Below are positions 105-27,205 of a DNA stretch of 64,000 nucleotides, piece after piece. The position numbers and the translations under genes are program-made. Origin of the DNA: an uncultured Rhodocyclaceae bacterium (GTDB taxonomy: Bacteria; Pseudomonadota; Gammaproteobacteria; Burkholderiales; Rhodocyclaceae); NCBI GenBank assembly GCA_964602565.1, contig CAZRRI010000004.1, forward strand, positions 4,668 through 68,667. Direction: 5' to 3'. The notes under the pieces are model-generated. The model made no database searches, was not told the DNA's origin, and worked only from the letters and a program-made list of their open reading frames with translations. The number at the start of each line of letters is the position of its first letter. Position 1 is the stretch's first letter.

Positions 105-1148
105 TCACGCCAACGCTGGCGCGACGCGCAACTCGTGGTTAAGCCAGAGCAGGATGCCGAACACGACCATCGAACCTCCCTGATGCGCGGCGCCCAGCGC
201 CACCGGCACGGCCAGGAGCAACGTTGCGATGCCGAGCGCGATCTGCACGGCGACAGCCAGGAGCAGGAGACTGGCGGCAAGGCGGGCCCTAGGCGACGCC
301 GCCGAACAGGCGCGGATTTTCCACCAGAACCAGGGCACCAGGAACGCCAGCGCCCAGGCGCCAAGCCGATGGTCGAACTGAACGGTCGCCATGTTGTTGA
401 AGAAGTTGAGGTACCACGGATCGATCATGAAAATTTCCGGCGGCACGACGTGGCCATTCATCAGCGGGAACGTGTTGTATGCCTTGCCAGCCCGGATGCC
501 CGCCACGAAGCCGCCGGTGACGATCATGTAGAAGACGAGGGCCAGGAGCCAGAAACCCGCGCGCCGCAGGCCGGCGAGCGTCGCGTCGAAAGCCTGTCGG
601 GTCCGTTCGGCGAGCACGTCCAACGCCACCCATACCATCGCGGCGAAAATCAGGAATGCCAGGGACAGGTGAGCCGTCAACCGGTACTGGCTGACTCGCG
701 GGTCGTCCACCAAGCCGCTCTTGACCATGTACCAGCCCATGGCACCCTGAAGTCCCCCCAGGATGAAGATACCGACCAATTTCGGCGTCAGGGATCGATC
801 GAACTTGCCTTTCCAGAGGAAATACAGGAACGGCAGCAGGAAGACCAAGCCGATGGTGCGCCCCAACACGCGATGCCAATACTCCCACCAGAAAATGCCC
901 TTGAACTCATCGAGGTCCATTCGATGGTTGACTTTTTGGTACTCGGGCGTTTTCTTGTACTTTTCGAAGGTTTCCTCCCACTCGGCCTGATTCAGGGGCG
1001 GAAGCGTGCCGACGATCGGCTGCCATTCGACGATCGACAGCCCCGAATGCGTAAGGCGGGTCACACCGCCAACGACCAGCGTCGCAAAAACCATCAGGCT
1101 GCAAATGAACAGCCATAGGGCAATGTGACGACGGGTATGGGCATTCAT
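105..1148 (-). CDS. ctaA: Heme A synthase (COX15/CtaA family)
   Basis: ORF 105..1175. Polytopic membrane protein with the COX15/CtaA N-terminal signature VGGVTRLTHSGLSIVEWQPIVG. Start is ambiguous: TTG at 1175, or ATG at 1148 preceded by GGAAAG. Divergent from a heme-copper oxidase operon. Confidence 0.85.
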   Translation of the reverse strand: MNAHTRRHIALWLFICSLMVFATLVVGGVTRLTHSGLSIVEWQPIVGTLPPLNQAEWEETFEKYKKTPEYQKVNHRMDLDEFKGIFWWEYWHRVLGRTIGLVFLLPFLYFLWKGKFDRSLTPKLVGIFILGGLQGAMGWYMVKSGLVDDPRVSQYRLTAHLSLAFLIFAAMVWVALDVLAERTRQAFDATLAGLRRAGFWLLALVFYMIVTGGFVAGIRAGKAYNTFPLMNGHVVPPEIFMIDPWYLNFFNNMATVQFDHRLGAWALAFLVPWFWWKIRACSAASPRARLAASLLLLAVAVQIALGIATLLLAVPVALGAAHQGGSMVVFGILLWLNHELRVAPALA

Positions 1149-1479
1149 GAGCAACGGCTTTCCGGAAAAATCCAAGGCAACTGTTTCGGCAACCAGACGA
1201 TATCGCGAACCGACGGCGACACGGGAGAATTATATGCGACCGCTTGTCGCGGCAGACAGATGGGTTAGCATGCGGCTACTTGTCGCAGGCCGGTAGTTAA
1301 GTCTGTGCTGATATTGGCGTTTCTTAACCCAGATCAATTGTCGGCATCGAGCACTACGGGTACCATCTTGAGCGTTTAAGCCGGAAAGTCCGCTCAAAGC
1401 ATTCTCCGGCCATTAAACGGCGATCGTCGGTGCGCGACGAGTGCTGACGTTGATTGTTAACCGATGGAGGATATTGGGT

Positions 1480-1650: not shown

Positions 1651-2190
1651 ATGAGCGCAATCCTGCCGCCCGCAGACCGGCTCTGGTGGAAGCAGTCCAT
1701 CGACAAGACCGAGTGGATGTGGATTTTCCTGGCATTCACTTGGGCCATGATCATGTTCTTCATGATGATTTACTGGCACATCAACGGCAAGCAGAACCTT
1801 TCCAACGAGGTTTACAAGACCACGCCGGAAGCTTTCGCGGCGAAGGCGGAAAAGTTCATCGCCGCCAACACCGTCCGAACCGAGACCGACCAGAACATCC
1901 CGGTCGTGACCGTGCCGGATGGCGGCGATGCCTACTTGGTCGCCAGCCTCTGGAAATGGTCTCCGATCCTGGAACTCGAGAAGGGCAAGACCTACAAGAT
2001 TCACCTGTCCTCGATGGACTATCAGCACGGATTCTCCTTGCAGCCGGTTAACATCAACATCCAGGTTCTGCCGGGTTATGAGCACGTCGTCAAGATGACA
2101 CCGACGCAGTCCGGCACCTACGCGATCGTCTGTAACGAATATTGCGGCATCGGCCATCACACGATGCTTGGCCGCATCTATGTGAAATAA
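1651..2190 (+). CDS. Cytochrome c oxidase subunit II, B-family (ba3-type), CuA cupredoxin
   Basis: 179 aa with one N-terminal TM helix. CuA site H-x34-CNEYCGIGHHTM (C-x-E-x-C-x3-H-x2-M). No fused cytochrome c domain. SD GGGAGAAAG precedes the ATG. Confidence 0.9.
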   Translation: MSAILPPADRLWWKQSIDKTEWMWIFLAFTWAMIMFFMMIYWHINGKQNLSNEVYKTTPEAFAAKAEKFIAANTVRTETDQNIPVVTVPDGGDAYLVASLWKWSPILELEKGKTYKIHLSSMDYQHGFSLQPVNINIQVLPGYEHVVKMTPTQSGTYAIVCNEYCGIGHHTMLGRIYVK

Positions 2191-2203: not shown

Positions 2204-3904
2204 ATGGCAACCACTTACCGTACCTGCCCGCGCACCGGGCTGCAATTCGACACCGAGGCCGAAAAGCTGATGCGATGGAATGCCGTGGCTGGCGTTCTTG
2301 CCCTGCTGGTTGGCGGCATCATGGCGCTCGGCGTCATCCTCACTCGCTGGCCGGCAATCAAGCTGCTGCCGCCCGACTGGTTCTACCTGGTGCTGACGGC
2401 GCATGGCGTCGACATGCTGCTGGTCTGGATCATCTTCTTCGAAATGGCCGTTCTGTACTTCGCCTCGTCCACATTATTGCGCTGCCGCCTCGCCACGCCG
2501 AAGATCGCCTGGCTTGGCTTCTGGCTGATGGCGATTGGCGCGGTGATCGGCAACTATGCGGTTCTGGCCGGTGAATCGAGCGTCATGTTCACGTCCTACG
2601 TGCCGATGCAGGCTTCTCCCTGGTTCTACCTCGGGCTGATCCTGTTCGCCGTCGGCGCGTTGATCGGCTGCTTCGTGTTCCTCGGCACCCTGGTCGTGGC
2701 CAAGAAGGAAAGGAGCTACGAAGGCTCGATTCCGCTGGTGACGTTCGGCGCCCTGACTGCCTGCATCATCGCGGTCTTTACCATCCTCACCGGCGCCGGC
2801 ATCCTGGTTCCCACGTTGTTCTGGTCGATGGGGCTGATCAAGGAAATTGATCCGCAACTCTACCGCATGGTCTGGTGGGGCTTGGGGCACTCATCCCAGC
2901 AGATCAACGTGTCCGCCCATGTGGCGATCTGGTATCTGATCGCGGCGGTGGTATTCAACGCGAAGCCGCTGTCGGAGAAGGTCTCCCGCTTCGCTTTCTT
3001 CCTGTACATCCTCTTCCTGCAACTGGCCAGTGCCCACCACCTGCTGTCCGACCCGGGCATGAGCGCGGAGTGGAAGGTTCTCAATACTTCCTACTTCATG
3101 TATTTCGCGGTGTTGGCATCGATGATCCATGGCTTCACGGTTCCCGGCGCCATCGAGGCTGCTCAGCGCAAGAAGGGTTACACCAATGGCATGTTCGAGT
3201 GGCTGCGCAAGGCACCCTGGGGCAACCCGGTGTTCTCCGGCATGTTCCTGTCGCTGGTCAACTTCGGCTTCCTCGGCGGCATTTCCGGGGTCGTGCTGGG
3301 CACCGAACAGTTGAACATGCTGATGCACAACACGTTCTATGTGCCGGGCCATTTCCACGCGACAGTCGTTTCGGGAACCACGCTCGCCTTCATGGCCGTG
3401 ACCTATCTGCTCGTTCCGACGCTGTTCAAGCGCGAGATGATCTCGCCGGGACTTTGCAAGATCCAGCCTTATCTGTTCGGTCTCAGCATGGCCGTCCTGA
3501 CGCTGGTGATGATGGGTGCCGGAACACTTGGCGTCTCGCGCCGGCACTGGGACATGGCGTTCTCGGGCGCACCGTTCCAGTATGAATGGCCGGGCGCCGC
3601 CCACCTGATGATGAGCCTCACCGGTATCTTCGGTGTTCTGGCGATCATCGGTGGCGCGCTGTGGATCTGGCTGGTAGTCGGTTCCCTGCTGTGGGGCAAG
3701 AAGCTGGATGAAGGCAAGCTCAGCGACAAGCCGGTGCCACACGCACCCTTGGACAGCGTCGCCGCCAGCGCCTCGCATACTGGCAGCGCCGAGCATGTCG
3801 CGGTGCCGGGCACTGTGGTCCTGGCAATGCTGCTGCTGGTTTCCTTCGTGCTCTACTACTTCGTGAACTGGAAGTATCTCTCCGAAGTCTGGGCGTTGAG
3901 TTGA
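2204..3904 (+). CDS. Cytochrome c oxidase subunit I, B-family (ba3-type)
   Basis: 566-aa polytopic protein with the heme-copper oxidase histidine set: TAHGVDML (helix II), WGLGHSSQQ (helix VI), SAHHLL (CuB pair), PGHFHATV (helix X H-x-H). Size matches ba3 subunit I. Confidence 0.9.
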   Translation: MATTYRTCPRTGLQFDTEAEKLMRWNAVAGVLALLVGGIMALGVILTRWPAIKLLPPDWFYLVLTAHGVDMLLVWIIFFEMAVLYFASSTLLRCRLATPKIAWLGFWLMAIGAVIGNYAVLAGESSVMFTSYVPMQASPWFYLGLILFAVGALIGCFVFLGTLVVAKKERSYEGSIPLVTFGALTACIIAVFTILTGAGILVPTLFWSMGLIKEIDPQLYRMVWWGLGHSSQQINVSAHVAIWYLIAAVVFNAKPLSEKVSRFAFFLYILFLQLASAHHLLSDPGMSAEWKVLNTSYFMYFAVLASMIHGFTVPGAIEAAQRKKGYTNGMFEWLRKAPWGNPVFSGMFLSLVNFGFLGGISGVVLGTEQLNMLMHNTFYVPGHFHATVVSGTTLAFMAVTYLLVPTLFKREMISPGLCKIQPYLFGLSMAVLTLVMMGAGTLGVSRRHWDMAFSGAPFQYEWPGAAHLMMSLTGIFGVLAIIGGALWIWLVVGSLLWGKKLDEGKLSDKPVPHAPLDSVAASASHTGSAEHVAVPGTVVLAMLLLVSFVLYYFVNWKYLSEVWALS

Positions 3905-3918
3905 CGTTTGCCTGACTT

Positions 3919-3999
3919 CCCCGCCGGCGTCGTACCACCGCCGGCGGGGAGTCTGCTTGAATCGGACTTGAAGAGGAAGTCCGATTCAAGCAGACTCCC
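3919..3999 (+). terminator. Two adjacent strong hairpins downstream of oxidase subunit I
   Basis: Hairpin 1: CCCCGCCGGCG (3919-3929) pairs with CGCCGGCGGGG (3939-3949). Hairpin 2: a perfect 23-bp stem, GGGAGTCTGCTTGAATCGGACTT (3947-3969) with AAGTCCGATTCAAGCAGACTCCC (3977-3999), and a 7-nt loop. No T-tract follows. Confidence 0.5.
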
Positions 4000-4043
4000 A
4001 CTGTTCGCGACCAGTTGGAGCAAGAACATTTACCGCGCACCCC

Positions 4044-4940
4044 ATGGAATCGACATTGCCTAACCTGTCACCCAAAGCATCCCGGCTGTCTCTTCGGGCC
4101 ATTCTCGGGGTATTCAAGCTGCGTATCGGCATCGTGATTACCTTTACGGCACTTGCCGGGCTGGCTGTCGCCGGCGGGCCAGGACTGACTTCTCTGCAAC
4201 TAGCGGTGTTAACGCTCGCAGTCCTGCTCTCCTCGGCAAGCGCCGGCGCTTTCAACCAGTACTACGAACATGACATCGACCCCTTGATGTCGCGCACCCG
4301 CAAACGCGTCTTCGCCACTGGCGAAGTCGCTCATGGTCCGATCTGGCTCGTTGTGATCGTCGGACTCATGGCCTTGTCGGTGATGGCCGCGTGGCTTGCC
4401 CTGAATGCGTGGTCGGCACTGTTCGTTTTCCTCGGCGCCTTCTTCTATGCCATCGTATACACGGTCTGGCTGAAGCGACGCACGTGGCTCAATATCGTTT
4501 TTGGTGGGTTGGCCGGTAGTTGGGCGGTCCTGGCTGGCGCCACGGCAGCCGCTCCCGATATCGGGGCATTGCCCCTGGCGCTGGCCTTCATATTGTTTCT
4601 ATGGACCCCCCCCCATTTCTGGAGCTTGGCGATCGCTTTCCGCGACGACTATGCGGCGGCCAAGGTGCCGATGCTTCCCGTGGTCGTCGGCGATAAGCGT
4701 GCCGCGCAAACTGTGTTCGCCAGCACGATTGCCCTCGTCGCTGTCTCCTTGCTGCCGGCGATCCTTGGTTTGGGGTCAATCTATCTTGCTGGCGCATGCA
4801 TCGGCGGCGCATGGTTCATTTACAAGGCATGGCATCTGTCGCGCAATCCGACGCGCGCGACGGCAATGAGTTGCTTTCATGCATCACTGGCACAATTGAC
4901 GCTGGTGTTGACCGCCGCCATCATCGACGCCCGCTTCTAG
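4044..4940 (+). CDS. ctaB: Protoheme IX farnesyltransferase (heme O synthase)
   Basis: 298-aa UbiA-family polytopic protein with the motif NQYYEHDIDPLMSRTRKR. Located in an oxidase/heme A context. Confidence 0.9.
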   Translation: MESTLPNLSPKASRLSLRAILGVFKLRIGIVITFTALAGLAVAGGPGLTSLQLAVLTLAVLLSSASAGAFNQYYEHDIDPLMSRTRKRVFATGEVAHGPIWLVVIVGLMALSVMAAWLALNAWSALFVFLGAFFYAIVYTVWLKRRTWLNIVFGGLAGSWAVLAGATAAAPDIGALPLALAFILFLWTPPHFWSLAIAFRDDYAAAKVPMLPVVVGDKRAAQTVFASTIALVAVSLLPAILGLGSIYLAGACIGGAWFIYKAWHLSRNPTRATAMSCFHASLAQLTLVLTAAIIDARF

Positions 4941-4959: not shown

Positions 4960-5835
4960 GTGTTTCTTCGTTTGCTCCGCATCGCAAGGATCGCGGTTCC
5001 GTTTTGCTGCGCATGCTTTGTCAGCCCGCTGCTGGGAAATACGGACAGCGATCCGAAAGTCACGGCGCGATCCCTGGGCTCCGTAGCCGATGCCACACTC
5101 ACCGTTCTCGACGAGAGAGCGGCGTTGGAACGGTCGCAAGCCGCGGTAGGGCGGCAGGTCGGTGATTTCACCCTGCTCGACCGACAAGGACGCCCCGTCC
5201 CGCTGTCACGCTTCAAGGGCAAGCCGCTCCTGGTGAGTTTTATCTACACCGCCTGCTTTCAGGTCTGCCCCACCACCACCCGGAATCTCCAGAAGGCGGT
5301 CGAGGGCACCGTCGTGACCCTCGGACCAGAGCGCTTCAACATCATCAGCATCGGTTTCAATCAGCCGTTCGATTCTCCCGAGGCGATGAAGTCGTTTTCC
5401 AGGCAATACGGCATACACTTGCCGAACTGGGAGTTCCTGAGCCCTTCACCCGCCATCGTAGCCGACCTTACCAGCAACTTCGGTTTCAGCTACGTCGCCA
5501 GCGTGGCTGGTTTCGATCACATCAATCAAGTAACGATCGTCGATCCCGACGGAAAGATCGTCCGACAGGTATACGGCGAAACGTTCACACCCGATGCCTT
5601 GGTCGAGCCGCTCAAGACCCTCGTCGCCGGTGCACCGATCCCCCCGAACGTGAGCACGGTCGAAGAACTGCTGGAACGTTTCCGCATCCTCTGCTCGGTT
5701 TATGATCCTCTTACTGGAAAATACCGAACCAACTATGCCGTCTATTTCGAGATCGCCGGAGTATTGACGTTCCTCGCATGGCTCGCTTGGTATTTTTGGC
5801 AGGATCGTCGCCACCGCAAGGCCAAGTCCGGTTGA
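4960..5835 (+). CDS. SCO1/SenC family copper chaperone / thiol-disulfide oxidoreductase
   Basis: Thioredoxin-like fold with motif FIYTACFQVCPTTT (CxxxCP). N-terminal signal/anchor and an extra C-terminal TM helix. GTG start. Confidence 0.8.
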   Translation: MFLRLLRIARIAVPFCCACFVSPLLGNTDSDPKVTARSLGSVADATLTVLDERAALERSQAAVGRQVGDFTLLDRQGRPVPLSRFKGKPLLVSFIYTACFQVCPTTTRNLQKAVEGTVVTLGPERFNIISIGFNQPFDSPEAMKSFSRQYGIHLPNWEFLSPSPAIVADLTSNFGFSYVASVAGFDHINQVTIVDPDGKIVRQVYGETFTPDALVEPLKTLVAGAPIPPNVSTVEELLERFRILCSVYDPLTGKYRTNYAVYFEIAGVLTFLAWLAWYFWQDRRHRKAKSG

Positions 5836-5857
5836 TGCCAGTCAATTCAACTGGCTC

Positions 5858-7486
5858 GTGATCTCTATATCATCGATCTCTAATAGTCGTCCCGTCGGGG
5901 CGACTCAACGGACGATTTCCCAGTTGAGCATTCACGACGCCCTGCGAAGGAGCACACAGAGTCTTTTTCAGCATGCCGAGGAAACCTTCGACGGGATCTT
6001 CGACGGCAATAACAATCCATGGCGTCATCTAGGCGCGATGGCATTCTTCTTTCTCTGGATAGTGACGAGCAGCGGCCTTTATCTCTATACCGTGCTCGAT
6101 ACCAGCATTGCCGGCGTCTATGAATCCATCGATTGGCTCACCAACCAGCAATGGTATCTGGGCGGTGTGCTGCGCAGCCTGCATCGATACTCCTCGGATG
6201 CCTTCATCCTGACCACCCTGCTGCACCTCGTCCGCGAATGGGCCTTTGGCCGGTATTACGGTTTTCGCCTGTACTCCTGGGTCACGGGCGTGCCATTGCT
6301 CTGGCTCATGTTCTTTTCCGGCATTGGCGGCTACTGGATCGTTTGGGACCGCCTCGCCCAGTTCTCGGCGGTAGCCTCGACCGAGTTGCTCGACTGGCTG
6401 CCCATTTTCAGTACCCCAGCCGCGCGAAATTTTCTCACCCCCGATGCAATCAGCGACCGGTTCTTCACGGTGTTGGTGTTCATCCATCTCGGCGTACCGC
6501 TGCTACTGATTCTCGGCCTGTGGGCTCATGTACACCGCATCAGCCGTGTCGATCACTTTCCAGCAAGGCGACTGGCGCTGGGAACCCTTGCCGCGTTGCT
6601 GGTCCTTGCTCTCGTGAAACCAGCCATCAGCGACGCACCGGCCGACCTTGCCATCCTTGCCACCGGATTGCGGCTGGACTGGTTCATTCTTTTCATCCAC
6701 CCGCTCACCGACGTCACGTCGCCTGGGTTCGTCTGGGCCCTGCTGCTTGGCGGTACGGTATTGCTGTTCATCTTGCCGCTGCTGCCACACCCCGCGTCCA
6801 GGCCGGTGGCGGTCGTCGACCCACCCAACTGCAACGGTTGCAGCCGCTGCCTCGTCGACTGCCCGTATGCGGCAGTCACCATGGAACCGCATCCCGACAA
6901 ACCAGGCCACAAGATCGCCATCGTCGACGCTGACCTATGCGCCAGTTGTGGTATTTGCGCGGGCTCCTGCCCCTCCTCGACGCCTTTCCGCAGCCAGGAG
7001 GCACTGGTCACCGGTATCGACATGCCGCAGTTGCCCGTTACCGTTCTGCGCCGAACTCTCGAGGAAAAAATCCGTCGCCTCGGAGGAACGACTCGAATCG
7101 TCGTCTTCGGTTGTGACCACGGTGTCGACGTCAAGGCACTCGAGAGCGCCGATACCGCCGTGATGAGCCTGATCTGCGCCGGTATGCTGCCGCCAGCCTT
7201 TGTCGAATACGCCCTGCGTGGCGGCGCCGATGGTGTCCTGGTTGCCGGGTGCCGCGTCGGCGGCTGCGAGTATCGTCTGGGCGACCGATGGACTGCGGAG
7301 CGCCTCGCTCGCCAAAGAGAGCCTCATCTACGCCACAACGTACCCGCCGACCGGCTATGTTTGGCGCATGCCTCAAGTCATGACAGCGCAATGCTGGCCG
7401 AGGAACTACGTCAGTTCAAAATCCGACTCGAAACCCAAGCAGCCGCACGGCCGCTTCCTTACCACCGGAGAAGTGCATCATCATGA
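5858..7486 (+). CDS. Fusion protein: di-heme cytochrome b (N-terminal type) + 2x[4Fe-4S] ferredoxin + MvhD/FlpD-like domain
   Basis: Two H-x13-H pairs in TM helices (SLHRYSSDAFILTTLLH; IHLGVPLLLILGLWAH). CNGCSRCLVDCP and CASCGICAGSCP clusters. C-terminal VVFGCDHGVD...LICAGMLPP...AGCRVGGCEYRLGDRW resembles the methyl-viologen-reducing hydrogenase delta subunit. The GTG start at 5858 is uncertain. Confidence 0.8.
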   Translation: MISISSISNSRPVGATQRTISQLSIHDALRRSTQSLFQHAEETFDGIFDGNNNPWRHLGAMAFFFLWIVTSSGLYLYTVLDTSIAGVYESIDWLTNQQWYLGGVLRSLHRYSSDAFILTTLLHLVREWAFGRYYGFRLYSWVTGVPLLWLMFFSGIGGYWIVWDRLAQFSAVASTELLDWLPIFSTPAARNFLTPDAISDRFFTVLVFIHLGVPLLLILGLWAHVHRISRVDHFPARRLALGTLAALLVLALVKPAISDAPADLAILATGLRLDWFILFIHPLTDVTSPGFVWALLLGGTVLLFILPLLPHPASRPVAVVDPPNCNGCSRCLVDCPYAAVTMEPHPDKPGHKIAIVDADLCASCGICAGSCPSSTPFRSQEALVTGIDMPQLPVTVLRRTLEEKIRRLGGTTRIVVFGCDHGVDVKALESADTAVMSLICAGMLPPAFVEYALRGGADGVLVAGCRVGGCEYRLGDRWTAERLARQREPHLRHNVPADRLCLAHASSHDSAMLAEELRQFKIRLETQAAARPLPYHRRSASS

Positions 7487-7980
7487 TCAAACCCACCGCC
7501 ATTGTCGGCCAGATAATCTTGTATGGCGCGTTTGCCGCTTTCATTGGTTACTTTGCCACTTCGCCGACATACCATCAGATTCCCGATGACACCGCGTTGA
7601 TCAAGCTTTCCATCAACCATCTTGGTGATCGTGAATGCCGCAAGCGCACGCCGGAAGAACTGGAAAAATTGCCCCGCAACATGCGAGCGCCCATGGAATG
7701 TCCGCGCGAACGGTCCGATATCATCCTAGAAGTCGATATCGACGGCCAGACCGCCCTGCGTACCGTCATGCATCCGACCGGCATTGCCAAGGATGGCATC
7801 GCAACGATCTACAAGCGATTCGAGGTCAAGGCCGGCGAGCATATGTTGTCGGTCAGGATGAGCGATAACGTCACCCAGCCCGGCTTCAAGTTCGTGAAGG
7901 AAGGCAAGGTCACGCTCAAGCCGGCGCAAGTACTTGTGATCGACTTCAACCCGGACAAGGGCGGACTGTTCTTCCAATAA
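7483..7980 (+). CDS. Hypothetical membrane-anchored protein
   Basis: ATGA overlap with the upstream stop. 165 aa with an N-terminal TM helix (IVGQIILYGAFAAFIGYFA) followed by a soluble domain. No family recognised. Confidence 0.6.
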   Translation: MIKPTAIVGQIILYGAFAAFIGYFATSPTYHQIPDDTALIKLSINHLGDRECRKRTPEELEKLPRNMRAPMECPRERSDIILEVDIDGQTALRTVMHPTGIAKDGIATIYKRFEVKAGEHMLSVRMSDNVTQPGFKFVKEGKVTLKPAQVLVIDFNPDKGGLFFQ

Positions 7981-8025
7981 CAACACTCCCCCACCGAGAA
8001 ACCATTTCGAGCGCGAATCACGACT

Positions 8026-9939
8026 ATGATCAAATTTCTCCAAAAGATGGTGCGCTGGTTCTTCATGCGTGCCGAAAACCTCTTCAACGTGGCCTTCGGC
8101 GACAAGTTGAACCCCTTCTATCATCTTGGCACCATCACCTTCTGGCAGTTCTGGCTGCTGGTAGTAACGGGGCTTTACCTGTACATCTTCGCCGACACCG
8201 GAGTACACGATGCCTACGAGTCGGTCGAGGCCATCACACACGACCAATGGTGGGCAGGCGGCATCATGCGCAGCGTGCATCGCTATGCCACGGACGGCAT
8301 GATCCTGACGATGATGCTCCACATGCTGCGTCACTTCGCCTACGACCGATACCGGGGTTTTCGCTGGTTCTCGTGGATGACCGGCATCGCGCTTATTTGG
8401 ATGGTATACATCGCCGGCATCAATGGTTTCATGCTGGTCTGGGACAAGCTTGCCCAATTCGTCGTGATCGCCACCGCCGAGTGGTTTGACGCAATCCCCC
8501 TGTTCAACGGCACGGTGATCCGCAATTTCCTTTACCCGGACAGCGTCAATAGCCGCTTGTTTACGCTGCTGGCCTTCATACACATCGGCTTACCCCTAGT
8601 GGTGGTCTTCGTCATGTGGGTGCACGTTCAACGCGTTCCCCGCGCCCACATCAATCCTCCCCGTCCGGTCGCGGTGGCGGTCACGCTCATGTTCCTCGTG
8701 CTATCGCTAGTGAAGCCTATTCACAGCCAGGGCGGTGAAGCCGACATGCTGGTCGTGCCCACCAACATCGCATTCGACTGGTTCGAACTACCGGTACTGT
8801 CGCTGGTCTATGTCATCGACCCGATCAAGCTTTGGCTTATCGTAATCGGACTGACGATCCTGTTGTTCCTCGTTCCCTGGCTGCCACCACAGCGCCGAGG
8901 CGCCGCCAAGGCGGAATCGACCGTCACCTACCACCCGGGACACAAGGCGGTGGCAGCGCGTTTCGGCGAAACGCTGCTCGACGCCGGTCTGCGCCAGGGC
9001 GTGGACCTGCCCTATGAATGCCGCAATGGTGGTTGCGGTGTCTGCAAGTGCACCGTCCTGCAAGGCGATGTGGACCCAGGCGTCTATCAGCCCAACGCCC
9101 TGTCGGCCGATGAACGGGCTCAAGGCAAGGTGCTGATGTGTTGCGCGACGGTGACGGGCGATGCGATCGTCGAATTCCAGCCCGGGGCCGCGACATCGAA
9201 CATCCGGGAATACACGGCCCGTGTTGTCAAGATGGAGCGGCTTTCCGCCGACATCATGCGCCTGATCCTCAAGCTTCCGGAGGGTCAGCACATCGACTTC
9301 GTGGCGGGCCAGTACATCAACATCATTCTGGATGACGGCCAGCGGAGACCCTTCTCCTTCGCCAATCCACCGCATGAAGCCGGTCAGATAGAACTCCAAC
9401 TCCGCCTGATGCCGGGCGGTGCCTTCACCCCCCATGTCTTCGACGGCATGAAGGAAGGTGACGAGATTCGCTTCGAGGGACCGATGGGCGATTTCACTTT
9501 GCGCGAATCGGCTCGCCCGATCATTTTCGTGGCGGGTGCCACCGGTTTCGCACCGGTCAAGAGCATGGTCGAGGATGCCTTCCATCGGAAGCTCAAGAGA
9601 CCAATCCACCTCTACTGGGGCGTCCGCAAGCGCGCCGACCTCTACATGCCCGAACTGCCGGAGCAATGGGCACGCGAGCACCCCAACTTCAAGTTCATTC
9701 CGGTGCTTCAGGAACCCGAGCCCGCCGACGCATGGACGGGACGTACCGGCCTGGTACACGAAGCCATATTGCAGGATTTCCCTTCCCTTGCCGGACAGGA
9801 AATCTATGCTTGCGGGTCCGTACGCATGGTCGAGGCGGTATTCCCGTCCTTCAAGGCACAGGGCGCGGAAGAAGGTATGTGCTTCTCGGATGCCTTTACG
9901 CTATCGGCACGCTCGATGGCGCTCCAACCCAAGGAGTGA
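8026..9939 (+). CDS. Fusion protein: di-heme cytochrome b + plant-type [2Fe-2S] ferredoxin + FNR-like FAD/NAD(P)-binding reductase
   Basis: H-x13-H pairs (SVHRYATDGMILTMMLH; IHIGLPLVVVFVMWVH). CRNGGCGVCKC...C [2Fe-2S] motif. RPFSFAN (flavin R-x-Y/F-S), GPMGDF and FVAGATGFAPVKSM (NAD(P) binding). Confidence 0.85.
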   Translation: MIKFLQKMVRWFFMRAENLFNVAFGDKLNPFYHLGTITFWQFWLLVVTGLYLYIFADTGVHDAYESVEAITHDQWWAGGIMRSVHRYATDGMILTMMLHMLRHFAYDRYRGFRWFSWMTGIALIWMVYIAGINGFMLVWDKLAQFVVIATAEWFDAIPLFNGTVIRNFLYPDSVNSRLFTLLAFIHIGLPLVVVFVMWVHVQRVPRAHINPPRPVAVAVTLMFLVLSLVKPIHSQGGEADMLVVPTNIAFDWFELPVLSLVYVIDPIKLWLIVIGLTILLFLVPWLPPQRRGAAKAESTVTYHPGHKAVAARFGETLLDAGLRQGVDLPYECRNGGCGVCKCTVLQGDVDPGVYQPNALSADERAQGKVLMCCATVTGDAIVEFQPGAATSNIREYTARVVKMERLSADIMRLILKLPEGQHIDFVAGQYINIILDDGQRRPFSFANPPHEAGQIELQLRLMPGGAFTPHVFDGMKEGDEIRFEGPMGDFTLRESARPIIFVAGATGFAPVKSMVEDAFHRKLKRPIHLYWGVRKRADLYMPELPEQWAREHPNFKFIPVLQEPEPADAWTGRTGLVHEAILQDFPSLAGQEIYACGSVRMVEAVFPSFKAQGAEEGMCFSDAFTLSARSMALQPKE

Positions 9940-9947
9940 TGCTAGCC

Positions 9948-10478
9948 TTACAACTGATCCAGCAGTTCAACCAGAGCGGCCCTGGACACTCGACCAAGGG
10001 CCGCGGCCCGAGGTTGCCCGGCGTGGTCGAGGACGATAGTGAACGGCACGGCAAGCGGGAGGTTGCCCAATGGCTTGGTCGGCTCGATGGCCTCCTCGCC
10101 TCCTGCCAGCAGCGCATACGACACCGGCATCGTCCGAGCAAACACTCGGACTTTCTCCGCGCTGTCGGCTGCAATTCCAACAAACTGCACGCGGCCTCGG
10201 TAATGCTCCGCCAAGTCGGAGAGGATGGGCATTTCTTCCCGGCAAGGCGCGCACCAGGTCGCCCAGAAATTGAGCACCAATACCCTGCCACGCCACTGGT
10301 CCAGCGCCTGCCTGCGTCCATCGAGGTCATACAAGACCAGGGCGTTCAGTGCTGCCATGTCGGCCGCGGAGACCGGCGGAGGAACCGATAGGGGCCGATC
10401 CCGCTCGACATCGGGTCTCAACAACCAAGCCATCGCCGCCAAGGCTAGCAGACCTGCTGCCAGCCACCATCGGGTCAT
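9948..10478 (-). CDS. TlpA-family periplasmic thiol-disulfide oxidoreductase
   Basis: The internal ATG at 10478 gives MTRWWLAAGLLALAAMAWLL (signal/anchor). Motif FWATWCAPCREEMP (CxxC thioredoxin). The start overlaps the stop of the upstream gene. Confidence 0.8.
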   Translation of the reverse strand: MTRWWLAAGLLALAAMAWLLRPDVERDRPLSVPPPVSAADMAALNALVLYDLDGRRQALDQWRGRVLVLNFWATWCAPCREEMPILSDLAEHYRGRVQFVGIAADSAEKVRVFARTMPVSYALLAGGEEAIEPTKPLGNLPLAVPFTIVLDHAGQPRAAALGRVSRAALVELLDQL

Positions 10479-11785
10479 TGCCGGCGGGGCCACATTGCCT
10501 TCAGGCAGACAACGATGAACATGATCCCGCCGATCACGGCAATCAGCCCACCCAGGCCCATCATGCCCATGCCGATCTTCTGTGGCAATGTGGTCAGCAT
10601 CTGTTCGGCACCGGCCACCTTGCGCTGCACGCCATAACCGCCAGACCACGCCAGTCCGAGCACATGGATCAGCTGACCGCCGCCATAGACATAGGCCTGC
10701 CACTTGGCCATGCGACCGACAGGTTCGCCATACCCCAGTCTCGGCAACAAGACATAGGCCAGCCCCATGAAAGCGAGGGTAACCCCCACCGTGGAACCAT
10801 GATAATGGGCTGGAATGACGACGTTGGCGCCACGAATCATATAGCCTAGAACACCGCCGATCGCGAACAGGACGAAAGAGGCAATGAAAGCAGCCTTCGC
10901 GGGATACGAGTCGATTCCACGATTACGCCAAAGCGTAACCAGACCGACCAGAATAAGCGGGCCCATGTAAGGGTGCCCCCATTCCATCAGCTTGGCAAAC
11001 AGCTCCATGTGCGGCAACGAACCCGCCGGCACCATCAGATAGATGGCCGGAACCGCCAGCAGCGGTACGGCGGCGATCCAGAACAGCGCCGAGAGCGCGC
11101 GTCGCGACAACGGCACGGGCCGGCCCCGCGCCTCGGCAATCCAGAACCACGCGACGGCCATCAAGAGCGCATGCTGAAACTGCAACGCATGGCCGCCTCC
11201 CCAGAATAGAACCTCGTGATAGAACTTGTCGTCATCGATGCGAGGGACTGCCCACCAGGACCAGAAAAAGGCACCCAGGGCCAACAGCCCGGCGATGGCG
11301 CCAAGGAAGCTGCCGGTTTTCAATGCGTGATCAAGCTTGATGGTTGCGACGGCCCTAAGCACGGCAAGCAAAAAACCCGCACCCAACAGCCAGAGCGATG
11401 CATAGAACAACGGCTGTTGCAGGACCGGTATGTAGTTGTTCAGCAGCGGATGTGCGCCAGGAAAAAATGGCGACACCATCATCACCATCGTCCCGGCCGC
11501 CGCCGCGCCAAGGCCAGCCCAGCCCAGCCAGGGCATGGCGCCACTGCCAACGGCGCTCCAGATGACCGCCGCGAAAGCCATGAACCAGACAGCGACGGAC
11601 AGATCGACATGCACCACCAGTGCGGCGCGGAAAAAATCCTTGAGCGGGAAGACATCCTGTATGCCGGGCGTCCGGGAAAAGACCAGCAACATCGCCAGCA
11701 AACCGGAGCCGATCAACGCCGTCAAACCTAGCCACAGCCAAGCTCGCGCAAGTTTTCGGGAGGAGTCGGAAACAATTTCGATCAT
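10475..11785 (-). CDS. Divergent heme-copper-oxidase subunit I-like membrane protein (orphan)
   Basis: Start taken at ATG 11785 (MIEIVSD), about 436 aa, polytopic. Oxidase-like histidines VVHVDLS, FWGGGHALQF and PAHYHGS (H-x-H). No adjacent HH pair and no subunit II nearby. Confidence 0.55.
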   Translation of the reverse strand: MIEIVSDSSRKLARAWLWLGLTALIGSGLLAMLLVFSRTPGIQDVFPLKDFFRAALVVHVDLSVAVWFMAFAAVIWSAVGSGAMPWLGWAGLGAAAAGTMVMMVSPFFPGAHPLLNNYIPVLQQPLFYASLWLLGAGFLLAVLRAVATIKLDHALKTGSFLGAIAGLLALGAFFWSWWAVPRIDDDKFYHEVLFWGGGHALQFQHALLMAVAWFWIAEARGRPVPLSRRALSALFWIAAVPLLAVPAIYLMVPAGSLPHMELFAKLMEWGHPYMGPLILVGLVTLWRNRGIDSYPAKAAFIASFVLFAIGGVLGYMIRGANVVIPAHYHGSTVGVTLAFMGLAYVLLPRLGYGEPVGRMAKWQAYVYGGGQLIHVLGLAWSGGYGVQRKVAGAEQMLTTLPQKIGMGMMGLGGLIAVIGGIMFIVVCLKAMWPRRQ

Positions 11786-12143
11786 CGTCGAGCCTGGGTG
11801 TTTAGAGCCTGCGAACTTGCAAACCATCGGAGTATAACGGTGAAGCCCCGTGATAAAATTTGCGGATGAGAATTGTCGCCGCGCTTGCGCTCGCCCACTT
11901 TCCGAGGCAAGACCGTAGTGCTCTCGCGTGGCCATACCCGATGCCCGGATGCCTGTCCGACGGCCTTGGTGTCGGATGCACGATACCAGACTCCATTTGC
12001 CCTGCTCGGCCAGAGCAGCCATGCATCCGACCGGCAATGCAGGCTATGCCGGCTAATAGGACATGGCGAAACCCCGGATCGTATCGCCGCCCACCCGCGA
12101 TTGCTGTCGGCCGGCCAGTCACATTGATTTCATGAGGCATTCC

Positions 12144-12572
12144 ATGAAGAAGACCTTCCTTCTGCTCGCTACCCTGCTGGTTCTTCCCTTGCCACCCGCC
12201 TTGGCCGAACCCGTCGACATCGATATCGGCACCCCTCCCGTCATCGTCATCCGACATTCGATGACCCAGCGCTACTCCCGACTCGTGAGAATGTATGATG
12301 CCGGAATCATCGGACTGGGTAATGACGGCATGCTGCAAAAGCGCGACACTGGCAAGCAGCTGACACTGGTGCAGCGCCAGATCGCCGAAAAACTGATCGA
12401 CCAGGACAACAACGATCGTCAGGCGCTGGTATACGCCATCGCCTACAACCATGAGGGCCGGCTCGCCCGGGTGCCGGAAATCCGGACGGCCCTGTTGAAG
12501 CGCTGGCAGGAGCAATTCAAATCGGGCTGGTGGATGCAGGACAGCGCGGGCAACTGGTTCCAGAAACCCTGA
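12144..12572 (+). CDS. Periplasmic YdbL/DUF1318-like protein
   Basis: ATG at 12144 gives the signal peptide MKKTFLLLATLLVLPLPPALA. The C-terminal region (DRQALVYAIA...WQEQFKSGWWMQDSAGNWFQKP) resembles the YdbL family. Confidence 0.45.
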   Translation: MKKTFLLLATLLVLPLPPALAEPVDIDIGTPPVIVIRHSMTQRYSRLVRMYDAGIIGLGNDGMLQKRDTGKQLTLVQRQIAEKLIDQDNNDRQALVYAIAYNHEGRLARVPEIRTALLKRWQEQFKSGWWMQDSAGNWFQKP

Positions 12573-12588: not shown

Positions 12589-13188
12589 CTAGCCCGGCGG
12601 TATCAGCGCCGGCAGCTTGGCACGCAGAGCCTGGGCGATCTGCTCGGGCGTGAGATTCTCATTGAGCGCGGAAACGAAATGTCCGACCGCGTTCACCAGA
12701 TAAATCGGACGATTGTGGTCGACCCGGTAGCTGCCATCGGCAGCCGCCGGCATCTTCCGATACGCCGCGGCAAAGCTCTCCGCAAAGATATTGAGGTCTT
12801 CAGGCTTTGCCGTGGCGCCGATCATGTCGGCCTGGAAGCGTCGCACATAGTCAGCCATGCTGGCGGGCGTGTCGCGGTCGGGATCGACCGAGACGACGAT
12901 CACGCGCACCAAGGACCGGTCTCGCGGAGACAGCAAGCGAAGACCGGCCGCGAGGCGCGCCAGCCGGTCGGAGCATTCATCCTCGCAATGAGCGTAGGCG
13001 AATGAAATCGCCAGGACATTGCCCCGCAGGTTCCTGCTGTCCAGCGCACCGCTCGCCGTGTCGAGCACGAAATCATTGGTGATCGGCGCGGCGTTGAACA
13101 GGCGGGAAAGCGGCTGCCAAACGAAAACCAGAAGCAGCAGCAGCACAAGTACGATCAGGGCATTCTTCAGGGTGTTGTCGGACATCAA
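12589..13188 (-). CDS. SCO family protein (second copy, atypical CxxxC)
   Basis: N-terminal TM anchor. Motif FAYAHCEDECSDRL (CxxxC without the usual Pro) and a downstream VDHNRPIYLV His. Confidence 0.7.
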   Translation of the reverse strand: MMSDNTLKNALIVLVLLLLLVFVWQPLSRLFNAAPITNDFVLDTASGALDSRNLRGNVLAISFAYAHCEDECSDRLARLAAGLRLLSPRDRSLVRVIVVSVDPDRDTPASMADYVRRFQADMIGATAKPEDLNIFAESFAAAYRKMPAAADGSYRVDHNRPIYLVNAVGHFVSALNENLTPEQIAQALRAKLPALIPPG

Positions 13189-15164: not shown

Positions 15165-15962
15165 TCAGGAAAACTCGCACGACCACGGCACGCAGGGGTC
15201 GAATGCCATCGCCAGGCGCGATGCCTGTTGCTTGGCTTCTGCTTTTCTCGCTCCCTTCAACCGTTGAAGCCAGTCTGCGACATCGCCACCGGGGGCGAAA
15301 TGCACGTCGGTCGGCGCGATGATGACGTAGTCTGCGACCTCGTCGCCATCCAGCGTCAGCCGATGCATCAGCGTGCCACGTGCTGTTTCCACTGTCGCGA
15401 TACCGACACCGGCTGAAGGCGACGTCGCCGTCACGGTACCAAGCGCCTGCTGCCGGCCCATCAGCCAATCCGCCAACGCCGAGACCCGCGCGGCGATGCA
15501 TCTGCGCAACAGCCGATCGATCTCCGTGTCGCCCAGCGCTCCGGCCAGCGCCGCGGGCAGCTCGTGCGCCGCCAGCAATCTCGCCAGATCGGCCCGCTCC
15601 GATGACGCTGCGCGCACTGATTGCACGAATAAGGTTTCATCGGGGGGCAAGCCGAATTGCCGCGGCCAATCGACGAACAGCTTCCAGGCATGCTCGCGTG
15701 CCGCCTCCGACTGGACCTCGGGGTCGACATATGCCTCGACAGGACTGCCGCGCGCCGCCGCCAGCGCCGCCCGCGCCGCGACGTCCTGCGCCTTGCCGCA
15801 TAGCGAGTAGATCAGCGGCACGGTTGCCACGACCTGCGCGGCCTGGCGGCCATTCAGCAGATGCGCGATGTCAGGACGCTGGCAGCTGACGGCGGCCGCC
15901 GTAACTTCATCGTCACGAACCATGAAGGACAGGACGACCCGGCCCGGCTCGAACGTGGCCAT
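15165..15962 (-). CDS. Short HupK/HoxV-like [NiFe]-hydrogenase large-subunit-related scaffold protein
   Basis: 265 aa with remnants of large-subunit motifs: YSLCGKAQ, ETARGTLMH, IIAPTDVHFAPGG and C-terminal FDPCVPWSC. Follows the nickel permease gene with a 3-nt gap. Confidence 0.5.
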   Translation of the reverse strand: MATFEPGRVVLSFMVRDDEVTAAAVSCQRPDIAHLLNGRQAAQVVATVPLIYSLCGKAQDVAARAALAAARGSPVEAYVDPEVQSEAAREHAWKLFVDWPRQFGLPPDETLFVQSVRAASSERADLARLLAAHELPAALAGALGDTEIDRLLRRCIAARVSALADWLMGRQQALGTVTATSPSAGVGIATVETARGTLMHRLTLDGDEVADYVIIAPTDVHFAPGGDVADWLQRLKGARKAEAKQQASRLAMAFDPCVPWSCEFS

Positions 15963-15965
15963 CGC

Positions 15966-16787
15966 TCAGCGTGCCGACACCGCCAGCGGTCGCCGCGCGA
16001 GCCACATCGAATAGAGGAAACTCAGGCCGACGAGACCGACGAGCACGAGGCCGAAAACCAGTTCCTTGCCCTCGCTCCAGTCATCGACCGCCGGCCAGGT
16101 CCATTTGGCGATGCCGAGGCCGGCCACCGCCAAGCTCAGCAGCGAAACGACGAGGCCCATGGTGCGCGAAGCGATGCGCGCCGAGCGGTCGGCACGCCGG
16201 ATCAGGTGCGAGATCCAGAGGCCGTTGATGCCGTCGGTAATGAACATGCCGAGCAGGAACAGCAGACCCAGCGACAGGGAGGCGCGCCAGCCGCCGAACT
16301 GCTCCGCCGCCAGCGCGAACAAGGTCGCCTGGCTGATGGTGTCGAAGGAAATCGCGAACAGGCCGCCGATGGCCATGATGGCCGCCGGCCGGTGCGTGCG
16401 CGCTAGGCCACCCAGCATGCGGCTCTTGACGCCGACCGGACGAACCATCTCATCCGGCGCCGTGGCCAGCACGGCGCGCAGGTTGAGCAGCCCCAGCGCC
16501 ACCAGCACCAGCACCGACACCATCATGCCCGAGACTTGCAGCCATCCCGGCGCCTGCCAGCGCGCCGCGACCATGCTGACCGCGAGGGCGACGATGACCA
16601 CGACCAGGCCATGCCCCAGAGAGAAGAGAACACCGCAGAACCTGGCCAGGCGCGGCCGCGCGCTGGCGTTGAAGCGTGTCAGGCCATCGATCGTGGCCAG
16701 ATGGTCGGCGTCGAAGCCGTGTCGCATGCCCAGCACCAGTACCAGCAGGCACAGGGCGTACCACTCGTGGGGCAGCGCGACATCCAT
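15966..16787 (-). CDS. NiCoT-family nickel/cobalt permease (HoxN/HupN/NixA type)
   Basis: Polytopic protein with the signature RHGFDADHLATIDG (H-x4-D-H). Confidence 0.8.
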   Translation of the reverse strand: MDVALPHEWYALCLLVLVLGMRHGFDADHLATIDGLTRFNASARPRLARFCGVLFSLGHGLVVVIVALAVSMVAARWQAPGWLQVSGMMVSVLVLVALGLLNLRAVLATAPDEMVRPVGVKSRMLGGLARTHRPAAIMAIGGLFAISFDTISQATLFALAAEQFGGWRASLSLGLLFLLGMFITDGINGLWISHLIRRADRSARIASRTMGLVVSLLSLAVAGLGIAKWTWPAVDDWSEGKELVFGLVLVGLVGLSFLYSMWLARRPLAVSAR

Positions 16788-16880
16788 GTAAGAAGATTAC
16801 ACGATTTCATCCTAATCTGTCCATTTCGACAGACCGGAATCAGCGCGGTGCCACGGGAAGCAGGACAGGCGGCATCATGC

Positions 16881-17354
16881 TCACGACACGACGTAGGAGC
16901 CGGCCCCGGTGGCGATCATCTCGCCGGCTTCGTTTTCCAGCGTCATTTGCAGCGAGGCAATGCGGCCGCCCAGGCGGATCACCCGACCGGTGGCGACGAA
17001 CTCCTTGCCTTTTCCCGGACGCAGGTAATCGACGCGCAGGTCGATGGTGCCGACGCGAGCGAAACGATGGCCGATTTCCTCGGCACTGTCGCCGGGATGC
17101 TTCTCGGCCAGGGCGACGGCGACGGCCAGGCCGCCGACGGTGTCCAGTGCCGCGGAAACGACGCCGCCGTGCAGCCGGTAATGAACGAAGTTGCCGACGA
17201 GATCGTCACGCATGGCGAACGCGAGTTGCGGTCCACCGGGGGCCAGTGACGCCACTTTCAGGCCGAGAATGTCGTTGAACTGAATCTGTCTCTCGAACAG
17301 ATCGCGCAGCATGGCCTCGCATCTGGCCTGCTCCTCGGCGGACCGCACCCTCAT
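16881..17354 (-). CDS. Hotdog-fold thioesterase (PaaI/YigI-like)
   Basis: 157 aa. Motif LHGGVVSAALDTVGG. ATGA overlap with the upstream gene. Confidence 0.7.
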   Translation of the reverse strand: MRVRSAEEQARCEAMLRDLFERQIQFNDILGLKVASLAPGGPQLAFAMRDDLVGNFVHYRLHGGVVSAALDTVGGLAVAVALAEKHPGDSAEEIGHRFARVGTIDLRVDYLRPGKGKEFVATGRVIRLGGRIASLQMTLENEAGEMIATGAGSYVVS

Positions 17355-19768: not shown

Positions 19769-19937
19769 ATCTCCTCCTCATGACAGGCCAATGCCGGAAC
19801 AGCGGCAAGGGCCATGGTTACGAAGAATGCTACGCCGCCCCGGCAAGAAGAATATCGACGTTAAGTGGGCTGAAACGATGGTTATTCGGGCGATAAGCAT
19901 GCAGACAGCATGACGGCGCCGCTCGCCCGCGCCGGGA

Positions 19938-20417: not shown

Positions 20418-20420
20418 GGA

Positions 20421-20741: not shown

Positions 20742-20781
20742 GTTCTTCTCCGTCGTGATTGCCTGGACGGATGGTATCCGG

Positions 20782-24684: not shown

Positions 24685-24923
24685 GGTCCGCCCACTTGCT
24701 CGCCCGCCTGCTCACCCATTTCCGCGAACAGGGCGAGCGTGCGCTGCGCCTCGTCGGGATCGAGCTTGTTCAGCGCGTAGCCGACATGGATGATCACGTA
24801 GTCGCCGACCTGGACGCCGTCGAGCAGCGCCAGCGAAACGTCCTTCCTTACGCCGCCGAGATCGACGATCGCCTGGTCGCCTTCAAGGATTTCCGCGACC
24901 CGCGCGGGTATTGCCAGACACAT
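24681..24923 (-). CDS. hypC: Hydrogenase maturation chaperone HypC
   Basis: The internal ATG at 24923 gives the [10 protein letters not shown]-terminus (essential Cys2). 80 aa. Confidence 0.85.
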
Positions 24924-24924
24924 G

Positions 24925-26819: not shown

Positions 26820-26830
26820 CGCAATGTTCC

Positions 26831-27172: not shown

Positions 27173-27205
27173 GGCCGCGGCGACACCGAACGAGATGGCG
27201 GAATC

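Follow-up and report, generated by a model that had tools for sequence, protein, structure and literature searches.

What do three adjacent genes of an uncultured Rhodocyclaceae bacterium do, when two of them encode di-haem cytochromes b fused to different soluble redox domains and the third, lying between them, a small membrane protein? The genes, here called A, B and C, are part of a window of 64,000 nucleotides (GCA_964602565.1, contig CAZRRI010000004.1, positions 4,668-68,667), and all coordinates below refer to that window. The original prediction took them for a redox module beside a ba3 oxidase. We find that they belong to the operon of an enzyme that is, judged by its residues, a nitric oxide (NO) reductase of the eNOR type. 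The trio probably encodes a membrane cytochrome b complex. We propose tentatively, with confidence a little short of even, that A, B and C form one membrane complex, a conserved accessory of eNOR operons, which would carry electrons from NAD(P)H and iron-sulfur (Fe-S) carriers across the membrane to eNOR. The cluster is organized as follows.

105..1175, minus strand: CtaA, haem A synthase, a context gene transcribed divergently (Pfam COX15-CtaA, 5.6e-115)
1651..2190, plus strand: predicted eNOR subunit II, CuA cupredoxin (Pfam COX2), with the full CuA motif HGFSL...CNEYCGIGHHTM
2204..3904, plus strand: predicted eNOR subunit I, haem-copper oxidoreductase with Gln replacing the cross-linked Tyr (Pfam COX1, 8.9e-65)
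4044..4940, plus strand: CtaB-like haem O synthase of the UbiA family (Pfam UbiA, 2.3e-51), syntenic
4960..5835, plus strand: SCO1/SenC copper chaperone (Pfam SCO1-SenC, 8.2e-15)
5832..5845, plus strand: FNR/DNR-type box TTGATGCCAGTCAA at the SCO1/A junction, upstream of A
5858..7486, plus strand: open reading frame (ORF) A, cytochrome b (six transmembrane helices, two haems), two [4Fe-4S] clusters and an MvhD/FlpD [2Fe-2S] domain
7483..7980, plus strand: ORF B, N-terminal transmembrane helix and periplasmic immunoglobulin (Ig)-like beta-sandwich with the putative disulfide pair C52/C73
8026..9939, plus strand: ORF C, cytochrome b (six transmembrane helices, two haems), plant-type [2Fe-2S] domain and FNR-like FAD/NAD(P) reductase

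The three plus-strand ORFs are confirmed, and Pfam and NCBIfam profile searches bear out every domain first assigned to them by eye (b-haem, Fer4, MvhD/FlpD, Fer2 and FNR).

The identity of the upstream enzyme sets the context. Its subunit I resembles the ba3 oxidase of T. thermophilus (1ehk_A, 4.6e-47), and its motif GHSSQQ aligns opposite GHPIVY of 1ehk_A, where Tyr237 is cross-linked. A Gln replacing the cross-linked Tyr is what defines subunit I of eNOR (PMC8756737); this replacement points to an eNOR-type enzyme and not to a ba3-type O2 reductase. The cluster also encodes a CuA subunit II, the haem and metal His ligands are present, and genes for haem A synthesis lie nearby. GHSSQQ is kept in 58 of 59 syntenic Rhodocyclales loci. 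Thus the original description was right that the oxidase cluster holds no cytochrome c, and wrong about the kind of enzyme; the biological context would shift from O2 respiration to NO reduction. Neither Rieske nor cytochrome c domains were found in the scanned window genes or in the L001 context.

According to the available portion of PMC11214002, haem-copper families without the cross-linked Tyr do not reduce O2, and the eNOR of R. marinus reduces NO, not O2, with haem As at both haem sites. The same portion counts 547 eNORs in GTDB genomes, describes operons that often contain CtaA, and finds eNOR in numerous strains of Accumulibacter, with high expression there, also in wastewater; it does not discuss a physiological donor. 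The 'ba3 (cbaAB)' of Accumulibacter in PMC6446978 would therefore be this eNOR enzyme.

The link between trio and eNOR is a matter of gene order. We scanned one genome per GTDB species and obtained 80 loci, all but one of them named Rhodocyclales or unclassified Beta- or Pseudomonadota. By tblastn with the window proteins, nearly every one of these roughly 80 species loci with enough flank shows COX2-COX1-CtaB-SCO1-A-B-C colinear, on one strand and with short gaps, so that the co-conservation on which the original prediction depended is real. B is never missing among the Rhodocyclales loci, and CtaA upstream of the cluster is kept in them. The exceptional loci, with no oxidase-like genes within 10 kb, include the complete genome of Accumulibacter phosphatis UW-1 (L057). 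One locus from a metagenome-assembled genome (MAG) labelled Chloroflexota, L043, carries an A-B-C-TlpA-HCO2 block that is 69-80% identical to Rhodocyclales genes; its contig is probably mis-binned.

A second module often lies within 10 kb of the trio. In the window it directly follows C:

9948..10478, minus strand: TlpA-like periplasmic thiol:disulfide oxidoreductase (Pfam AhpC-TSA, Redoxin and Thioredoxin; NCBIfam TlpA, 1.3e-17)
10475..11785, minus strand: HCO2, a divergent haem-copper-oxidase-like protein without the CuB His-His pair (weak Pfam COX1, 1.8e-11)
12063..12572, plus strand: DUF1318 protein with a signal-peptide-like N-terminus, which accompanies HCO2 (Pfam DUF1318, 3.4e-11)
12589..13188, minus strand: second SCO1/SenC paralogue (Pfam SCO1-SenC, 1.8e-28)

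Read from its translation, the TlpA-like gene probably starts at the ATG at 10478, in an ATGA overlap with its upstream gene HCO2. The two genes are thus translationally coupled, and DUF1318 and the second SCO1 adjoin them.

The association with eNOR extends beyond Rhodocyclales. A metagenome scan with a 24-sequence alignment gave at least 592 relatives, and our counts refer to the best 80 loci (L088-L167); as best matches to one gammaproteobacterial-type query, these are a clade-biased sample of the family. In all 51 of these loci with at least 3.6 kb of upstream sequence, a COX1 gene with the motif GH[SAG]SQQ precedes, on the same strand, a gene in which A and B are fused (A/B), and in 70 of 70 SCO1 lies directly upstream of the A-type gene. 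A hemerythrin-domain gene (PF01814, about 130 aa) directly follows the A/B fusion in 52 of 62 loci. The window has no such gene and Rhodocyclales loci almost never have one; in these, C takes that position.

More distant contexts (L083, L085, L087, L168, L169 and L172) show the same link:

L083: Crp, A/B, CtaA, cupredoxin, multihaem c, NirS, SCO1, CtaB, COX1, COX2
L085 (Gammaproteobacteria MAG): qNOR ... COX2-COX1-UbiA-SCO1-A/B-hemerythrin
L169: Rrf2, NirK-cytochrome c, COX2, COX1, SCO1, A/B
L168 and L087: COX2-COX1-(HCO2)-UbiA-SCO1 with A/B, a NuoF-like gene and a second cytochrome b-Fe-S gene
L172 (the locus of P0404): COX2-COX1(GHSSQQ)-UbiA-A-B-HCO2-PCuAC-CtaG-SCO1-[cytochrome b-diflavin]-NnrS

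The COX1 proteins of L083, L085, L169, L168 and L087 all carry GH[SA]SQQ. NAD(P)H-binding modules accompany this cytochrome b subfamily in three forms: Fer2-FNR, the architecture of C, which is repeated in P0413; a NuoF-like protein, whose gene sits between the two cytochrome b genes in L087 and L168; and a diflavin NADPH reductase, which P0404 carries as a fusion of cytochrome b, flavodoxin, FAD and NAD domains. The diflavin example weighs less, as it may be an artefact: the cytochrome b parts of the A-type and the cytochrome b-diflavin genes of L172 are 100% identical. Positions 3911-4210 and 9935-10234 of that locus form a perfect direct repeat, 6,024 bp apart, of at least 300 nt of DNA and 206 identical residues, which may reflect a recent duplication, gene conversion or an assembly artefact.

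The spacing between SCO1 and A alone would permit read-through from SCO1. Upstream of A, however, the FNR/DNR box makes a promoter of its own probable. Of 81 Rhodocyclales loci, 48 have a TTGAT-N4-GTCAA box within 260 bp upstream of A codon 29, where chance predicts 0.02 per window, and the trio would probably respond through it to O2 or NO. In a consensus scan for promoters and terminators, site counts were no higher than in shuffled sequence. Genes for Rrf2, Crp, NirS, NirK, NnrS and hemerythrin lie near the module in other lineages.

ORF A matches Cytochrome_B (8.9e-13), Fer4_7 (2.7e-09) and FlpD (4e-14) in Pfam, all above the cut-offs. It contains two H-x13-H pairs (H109/H123 and H210/H224), two CxxCxxCxxxCP motifs (C325-P336 and C361-P372) and, in the FlpD part, four more cysteines (C419, C440, C465 and C470). 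The haem-ligand histidines, the CxxCxxCxxxCP motifs and the FlpD cysteines are invariant in 15 homologues, and the haem ligands are so among 24 diverse relatives of the cytochrome b. Homologues of about 520-524 aa begin with 'MSLH..', hence translation probably starts at the TTG at 5924 rather than at the GTG at 5858, giving a protein of 520 aa. His57 was considered as a special ligand, being at the position of Cys35 of cytochrome b6, the binder of haem cn; it is not conserved across the family, and we discarded it.

The FlpD part is similar to solved MvhD subunits (9sw2_D, 2.8e-8; 5odc_D, 5.9e-7), and it shares four conserved cysteines with the MvhD and FlxD connectors of Hdr complexes. Unlike them, it is fused to a membrane cytochrome b, and the cluster is without HdrA, Mvh hydrogenase and Flx. 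No HdrA or Mvh-type hydrogenase, the association expected of an FlpD domain, occurs in the operon or in related loci.

The best solved match of the cytochrome b part is cytochrome b6 (2.5e-18). Over 294 aa, the membrane part of A shares 41% identity with that of C (E 3e-77); the two are far closer to each other than either is to cytochrome b6, and are therefore paralogues. Such identity is as expected for the two halves of a cytochrome-b-type dimer. Each has six helices, with the soluble domains inside, whereas B faces outside. In two further helices, an invariant Asp-Trp-Phe (DWF) stands where PEWY would be expected. At the sequence level, a search against solved structures matched these helices, E-F, neither with subunit IV nor with the C-terminal half of cytochrome b, so their possible homology to subunit IV is a motif-level argument only. 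The AlphaFold2 model of A, made from a shallow alignment of 15 sequences, had a predicted local distance difference test (pLDDT) score of 46.7 and was not used in fold comparison.

With bc1 and b6f the complex would share the fold family of cytochrome b, the four His haem ligands in helices B and D, the cd-loop GY..WD, the DWF at the PEWY position and a presumed dimer. Unlike these, it has just six helices and neither a Rieske protein nor cytochrome c1 or f; fused cytoplasmic Fe-S and flavin domains follow on the inner (Qi) face, and the dimer would be an A·C heterodimer. Another comparison is with SoxC of the Sulfolobus SoxABCD quinol oxidase, likewise a Rieske-less cytochrome b encoded with, and feeding, a B-type haem-copper enzyme. 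However, SoxC has no cytoplasmic Fe-S or flavin domains and SoxABCD reduces O2; the weak NCBIfam matches to SoxC, SoxA and SoxB are far under the cut-offs (cyt_b_SoxC, 26-42 bits vs 740).

An exhaustive search with A yielded 3086 clusters with E<=1e-3, of which 502 reach E<=1e-30. The MvhD-type fusion, as foreseen, has no description that we could find, but it is not rare, and B is fused to it in many members. Among the best 150 A-type cluster representatives, 55 are single chains of about 690-720 aa with the order cytochrome b-Fer4-FlpD-B, 48 are cytochrome b-Fer4-FlpD and 2 are cytochrome b-B.

ORF B (165 aa) begins with an ATG that overlaps the TGA of A as ATGA. It has no Pfam and no NCBIfam match. 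Its 830 homologues include none that is named, and the best 120 are 73-92% identical; B is as conserved as the neighbouring genes, which marks it as a real gene under selection. That it occurs at the C-terminus of A-type proteins in those 55 of 150 representatives places it with A. In the fusions, moreover, the helix of B comes after the cytoplasmic FlpD domain, hence its sandwich is periplasmic; the charge distribution of B agrees.

The AlphaFold2 model of B (pLDDT 84.8) comprises an N-terminal transmembrane helix and an Ig-like beta-sandwich. Foldseek against the PDB gave nothing at E<=1e-3, with a CBM20 domain best at 8.9e-3, and the modelled sandwich appears generic, without a functional lead. 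C52 and C73 are both present or both absent in distant members, and so behave as a putative disulfide. A comparison of distant members revealed no conserved metal-binding pattern, and a His conserved in other lineages is Asn in the window protein. We also considered B as a degenerate Rieske protein or cupredoxin and rejected this, since it has no CxH/CxxH or H..C..H..M pattern.

ORF C matches Cytochrome_B (3.6e-18), Fer2 (4.9e-16), FAD_binding_6 (8.5e-17) and NAD_binding_1 (5.1e-23), and shows two H-x13-H pairs and the motifs RPFSF, GPMGDF and GATGFAP. Its soluble part corresponds over the whole length to BenC-class reductases (BenC-like NCBIfam, 1.2e-63; full-length PDB matches 5ogx_A, 2.7e-56, and 1krh_A, 5.2e-43), with the plant-type [2Fe-2S] Cys pattern, RxFS for FAD and GxGxxP for NAD; the FNR part also matches the Fre model (9.7e-57). 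BenC-class reductases serve a soluble oxygenase, however, whereas C is fused to a cytochrome b. NOX and MsrQ-Fre work by a similar logic, electrons passing from an NAD(P)H flavoprotein of the FNR family to a di-haem b protein in the membrane and on to an acceptor outside the cytoplasm, but these have a ferric-reductase fold, unrelated to that of cytochrome b, and C has an additional [2Fe-2S] cluster.

Full-length, five-domain homologues of C occur in Accumulibacter (76% identity), Dechloromonas/Azonexus (77%), Sulfuritalea (75%) and 'Ca. Nitricoxidivorans' (80%); the homologue sets of A and B match those of C, many on shared contigs. With 100% coverage, the same five Pfam domains and the same gene order, C is by sequence comparison the ortholog of the Accumulibacter 'novel cytochrome b/b6' or 'novel quinol reductase', a link that the original prediction had already made. 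Its function is still only suggested (Garcia-Martin 2006, as cited in PMC4930944), and the same 'novel cytochrome' is mentioned in PMC2289847; we found no experimental test of it in the literature searched. As published, the idea concerns C by itself, takes no account of A, B and eNOR, and has electrons flow in the opposite direction from that proposed here.

A and B, in turn, have no description in the literature searched, nor did we find there a paper that links the A-B-C proteins to eNOR. The main texts of PMC11214002 and of the preprint, in their available portions, make no mention of a cytochrome b/Fe-S protein in eNOR operons. The sole trace is a table entry in PMC8756737, the Chloroflexi ORF RME88945.1, in which cytochrome c, cytochrome b6, DMSOR-beta-like and FlpD domains are combined. 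C is a known hypothetical, while for A, B, the eNOR linkage and the idea of a heterodimer the literature searched seems to offer no description.

How might such a complex work? A and C would form a Rieske-less dimer of paralogous di-haem cytochromes b, paired like the cytochromes b of bc1, with B as a single-pass subunit that exposes its beta-sandwich to the periplasm. Since NAD(P)H oxidation is the usual reaction of BenC-type and diflavin reductases, electrons should enter from the cytoplasm. C would oxidise cytoplasmic NAD(P)H and pass electrons from FAD to its [2Fe-2S] cluster, while A could serve as a second cytoplasmic entry or as a relay, from the MvhD-type [2Fe-2S] to the two [4Fe-4S] clusters. 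From there they would cross the membrane from the inner to the outer haem b, an outward step that both redox potential and membrane potential would favour, and leave on the periplasmic side. The recipient would be eNOR, by way of CuA or the low-spin haem, and possibly HCO2 as well; delivery might be direct or go through the retained Qo-like quinone pocket. In sum, NO reduction would be fed from the NAD(P)H pool independently of bc1 and cytochrome c. The original idea that NAD(P)H and Fe-S carriers are wired to the b haems remains the most plausible in general terms; it is the quinol:NAD(P)+ direction that we disfavour. Of this scheme, the pairing of A with C, the direction of electron flow and above all the nature of the acceptor on the periplasmic side are what we infer.

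A stronger version holds that A-B-C and the widespread A/B fusions are the missing physiological electron-input complex of eNOR, in an NAD(P)H:NO chain that bypasses quinone, bc1 and cytochrome c. This we regard as possible but doubtful.

Several observations speak against electron delivery to eNOR by A-B-C. The whole family is known from sequence alone. The exit step is the weak point of the proposal: B has no cofactor motif, and there is no obvious bridge from the outer haem b to CuA. Operons with A/B only, without an NAD(P)H module, are common, and the A/B genes of L086 and L170 have no haem-copper enzyme within the available flank. In UW-1 (NC_013194) the trio is apart from eNOR, with none within 10 kb. 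The purified eNOR of R. marinus consists of two subunits and shows activity with N,N,N',N'-tetramethyl-p-phenylenediamine (TMPD)/ascorbate (PMC11214002, available portion). Outward flow, finally, would cancel the charge separation of a NO reductase protonated from the cytoplasm, so that little energy would be conserved. In UW-1 we also observe about 800 bp extra between A and B, and the cluster is split in this reference genome.

A further objection concerns the pocket. Across the family, conservation is highest in GYxxxWD of the cd loop and in the invariant Asp of the DWF that stands in place of PEWY; this speaks for a reaction of quinone at the outer face and against a simple wire. It suggests that a quinone-type pocket may be retained, as an exit route or as a real active site. 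In the latter case the complex would be a quinone-linked enzyme: either NAD(P)H and Fe-S carriers reduce quinone at a real outer site, or quinol oxidation is bifurcated, one electron going to eNOR as high-potential acceptor and the other over the b haems to Fe-S, MvhD and NAD(P)+. Quinol-oxidising cytochromes b6 and b are indeed the nearest relatives of known structure, and low-potential cytoplasmic cofactors are present. Bifurcation has been proposed for anammox Rieske/cytochrome b complexes with NAD(P) oxidoreductase subunits, to which we liken a Rieske-cytochrome b-GltD-like set encoded beside the module in L087. Yet neither a Rieske protein nor any other one-electron centre adjoins the pocket, and B is without cofactor. 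By our estimate, with ubiquinone and an acceptor at the level of CuA, the membrane potential keeps the second electron from reaching NAD(P)+. Reduction of quinone by NAD(P)H on the outer side would dissipate the proton-motive force, and the tight operon link to eNOR would go unexplained. We consider a quinone-linked enzyme unlikely.

HCO2 raises another question, namely whether it is the true partner, the cytochrome b complex and HCO2 being a separate enzyme that merely shares a gene island with eNOR. One cluster representative, P0453, is a single polypeptide of cytochrome b and an HCO2-type protein, the latter 49% identical to the window HCO2. Homologues of HCO2 lie inside the eNOR/cytochrome b operons of L168, L087 and L172 and within 10 kb of the trio in many Rhodocyclales loci. 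Against this stands its detection in only about 8 of the 80 gamma-type metagenomic loci, compared with 51 of 51 for eNOR. HCO2 still has the histidine ligands of two haems and, of the three CuB/FeB histidines, the first (motifs HVDLS, GGGHALQF and HYHG); the absence of the other two makes catalysis doubtful. Altogether, HCO2 as the true partner seems improbable.

The order of the genes could also be read in terms of assembly, since A always follows the assembly genes CtaB and SCO1 and not the structural genes. As a cofactor-biogenesis factor, the complex would bring reducing equivalents to the outer side for the assembly of eNOR, either for CtaA or for copper and thiols in the SCO1/TlpA-dependent formation of CuA. 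C consists of exactly a reductase and a [2Fe-2S] ferredoxin module, haem As occupies both haem sites of eNOR, and in mitochondria the O2-dependent haem A synthase Cox15 receives its electrons along the chain NADPH-Arh1-Yah1-Cox15. CtaA adjoins the cluster in Rhodocyclales and in L083, and TlpA-like, PCuAC and CtaG genes are found nearby. But CtaA is within 10 kb in only 5 of the 80 metagenomic loci, most bacteria assemble haem A and CuA enzymes without such a protein, and for the work of a chaperone, a di-haem cytochrome b of six helices with a Qo-like pocket is elaborate; biogenesis strikes us as improbable.

The Accumulibacter hypothesis, repeated in PMC4930944 and PMC2289847, that a quinol:NAD(P)+ reductase re-oxidises the quinol of succinate dehydrogenase and so lets the tricarboxylic acid cycle run anaerobically, fits the cytochrome b and the NAD(P)-binding flavin domain of C and deserves almost no credence otherwise: it leaves A, B and the eNOR linkage unaccounted for, orthologues of C occur in genera that are not polyphosphate-accumulating organisms (Sulfuritalea, Sulfurisoma and Azospira), the FNR/DNR box and the NO-related neighbours point elsewhere, and it conflicts with the predicted topology, in which an outer quinone pocket and an inner NAD(P) site would make the reaction about 400 mV uphill while inward movement of negative charge and proton release outside build the proton-motive force, which therefore cannot drive it, so that it would be feasible only as a bifurcation with a very high-potential acceptor, for which, by our estimate, the CuA level is insufficient with ubiquinone.

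As an electron-input complex, A-B-C would be a concrete candidate donor for eNOR, which is widespread, with relevance to N2O formation and aerobic denitrification in treatment plants. It would also re-frame a 20-year-old assumption. Models of enhanced biological phosphorus removal have the 'novel cytochrome b/b6' provide anaerobic reducing power in the role of a quinol:NAD(P)+ reductase, whereas the invariable partners of C point to NO metabolism rather than to that role. Independently of function, proteins of the cytochrome b-2[4Fe-4S]-MvhD architecture, some with the B domain and some lacking it, make up a large uncharacterised family of 502 clusters, and a second, CuB-less oxidase-like protein, HCO2, is linked to it.

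Elsewhere the window holds a large hydrogenase island, at 15165-33434 and 39264-48120:

15165-15962: HupK-like ORF
28596-30344: [NiFe] large subunit
30322-31545: 407-aa ORF without Pfam match
39264-41828: second hydrogenase pair (small and large subunit), with a sigma-54 response regulator after it
43456-45345: HoxF-like NuoE/F fusion
46639-48120: further hydrogenase large-subunit-like gene

The island also includes NicO, NikR, HypD and HycI, a short HypF (530 aa, whose N-terminal domains are without matches) and a 646-aa Fer4_11 protein. The second pair we take to be possibly of the sensor type. Its hydrogenases were considered as partners of the MvhD domain. Counted from C, the genes start about 5 kb (HupK-like, 15165) to 19 kb (large subunit, 28596) downstream. 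Accumulibacter shows no synteny for them, and we rejected the link because the stretch that follows C is not conserved there.

Two further ORFs on the minus strand, of 1080 aa (56700-59942) and 279 aa (55860-56699), have high third-position GC and no Pfam match at 1e-5. At 36079-36969, also on the minus strand, lies a precursor-modifying enzyme for ribosomally synthesized and post-translationally modified peptides, of the MbnB/TglH/ChrH family (1.5e-110), which hints at a gene cluster for a methanobactin-like or related peptide.

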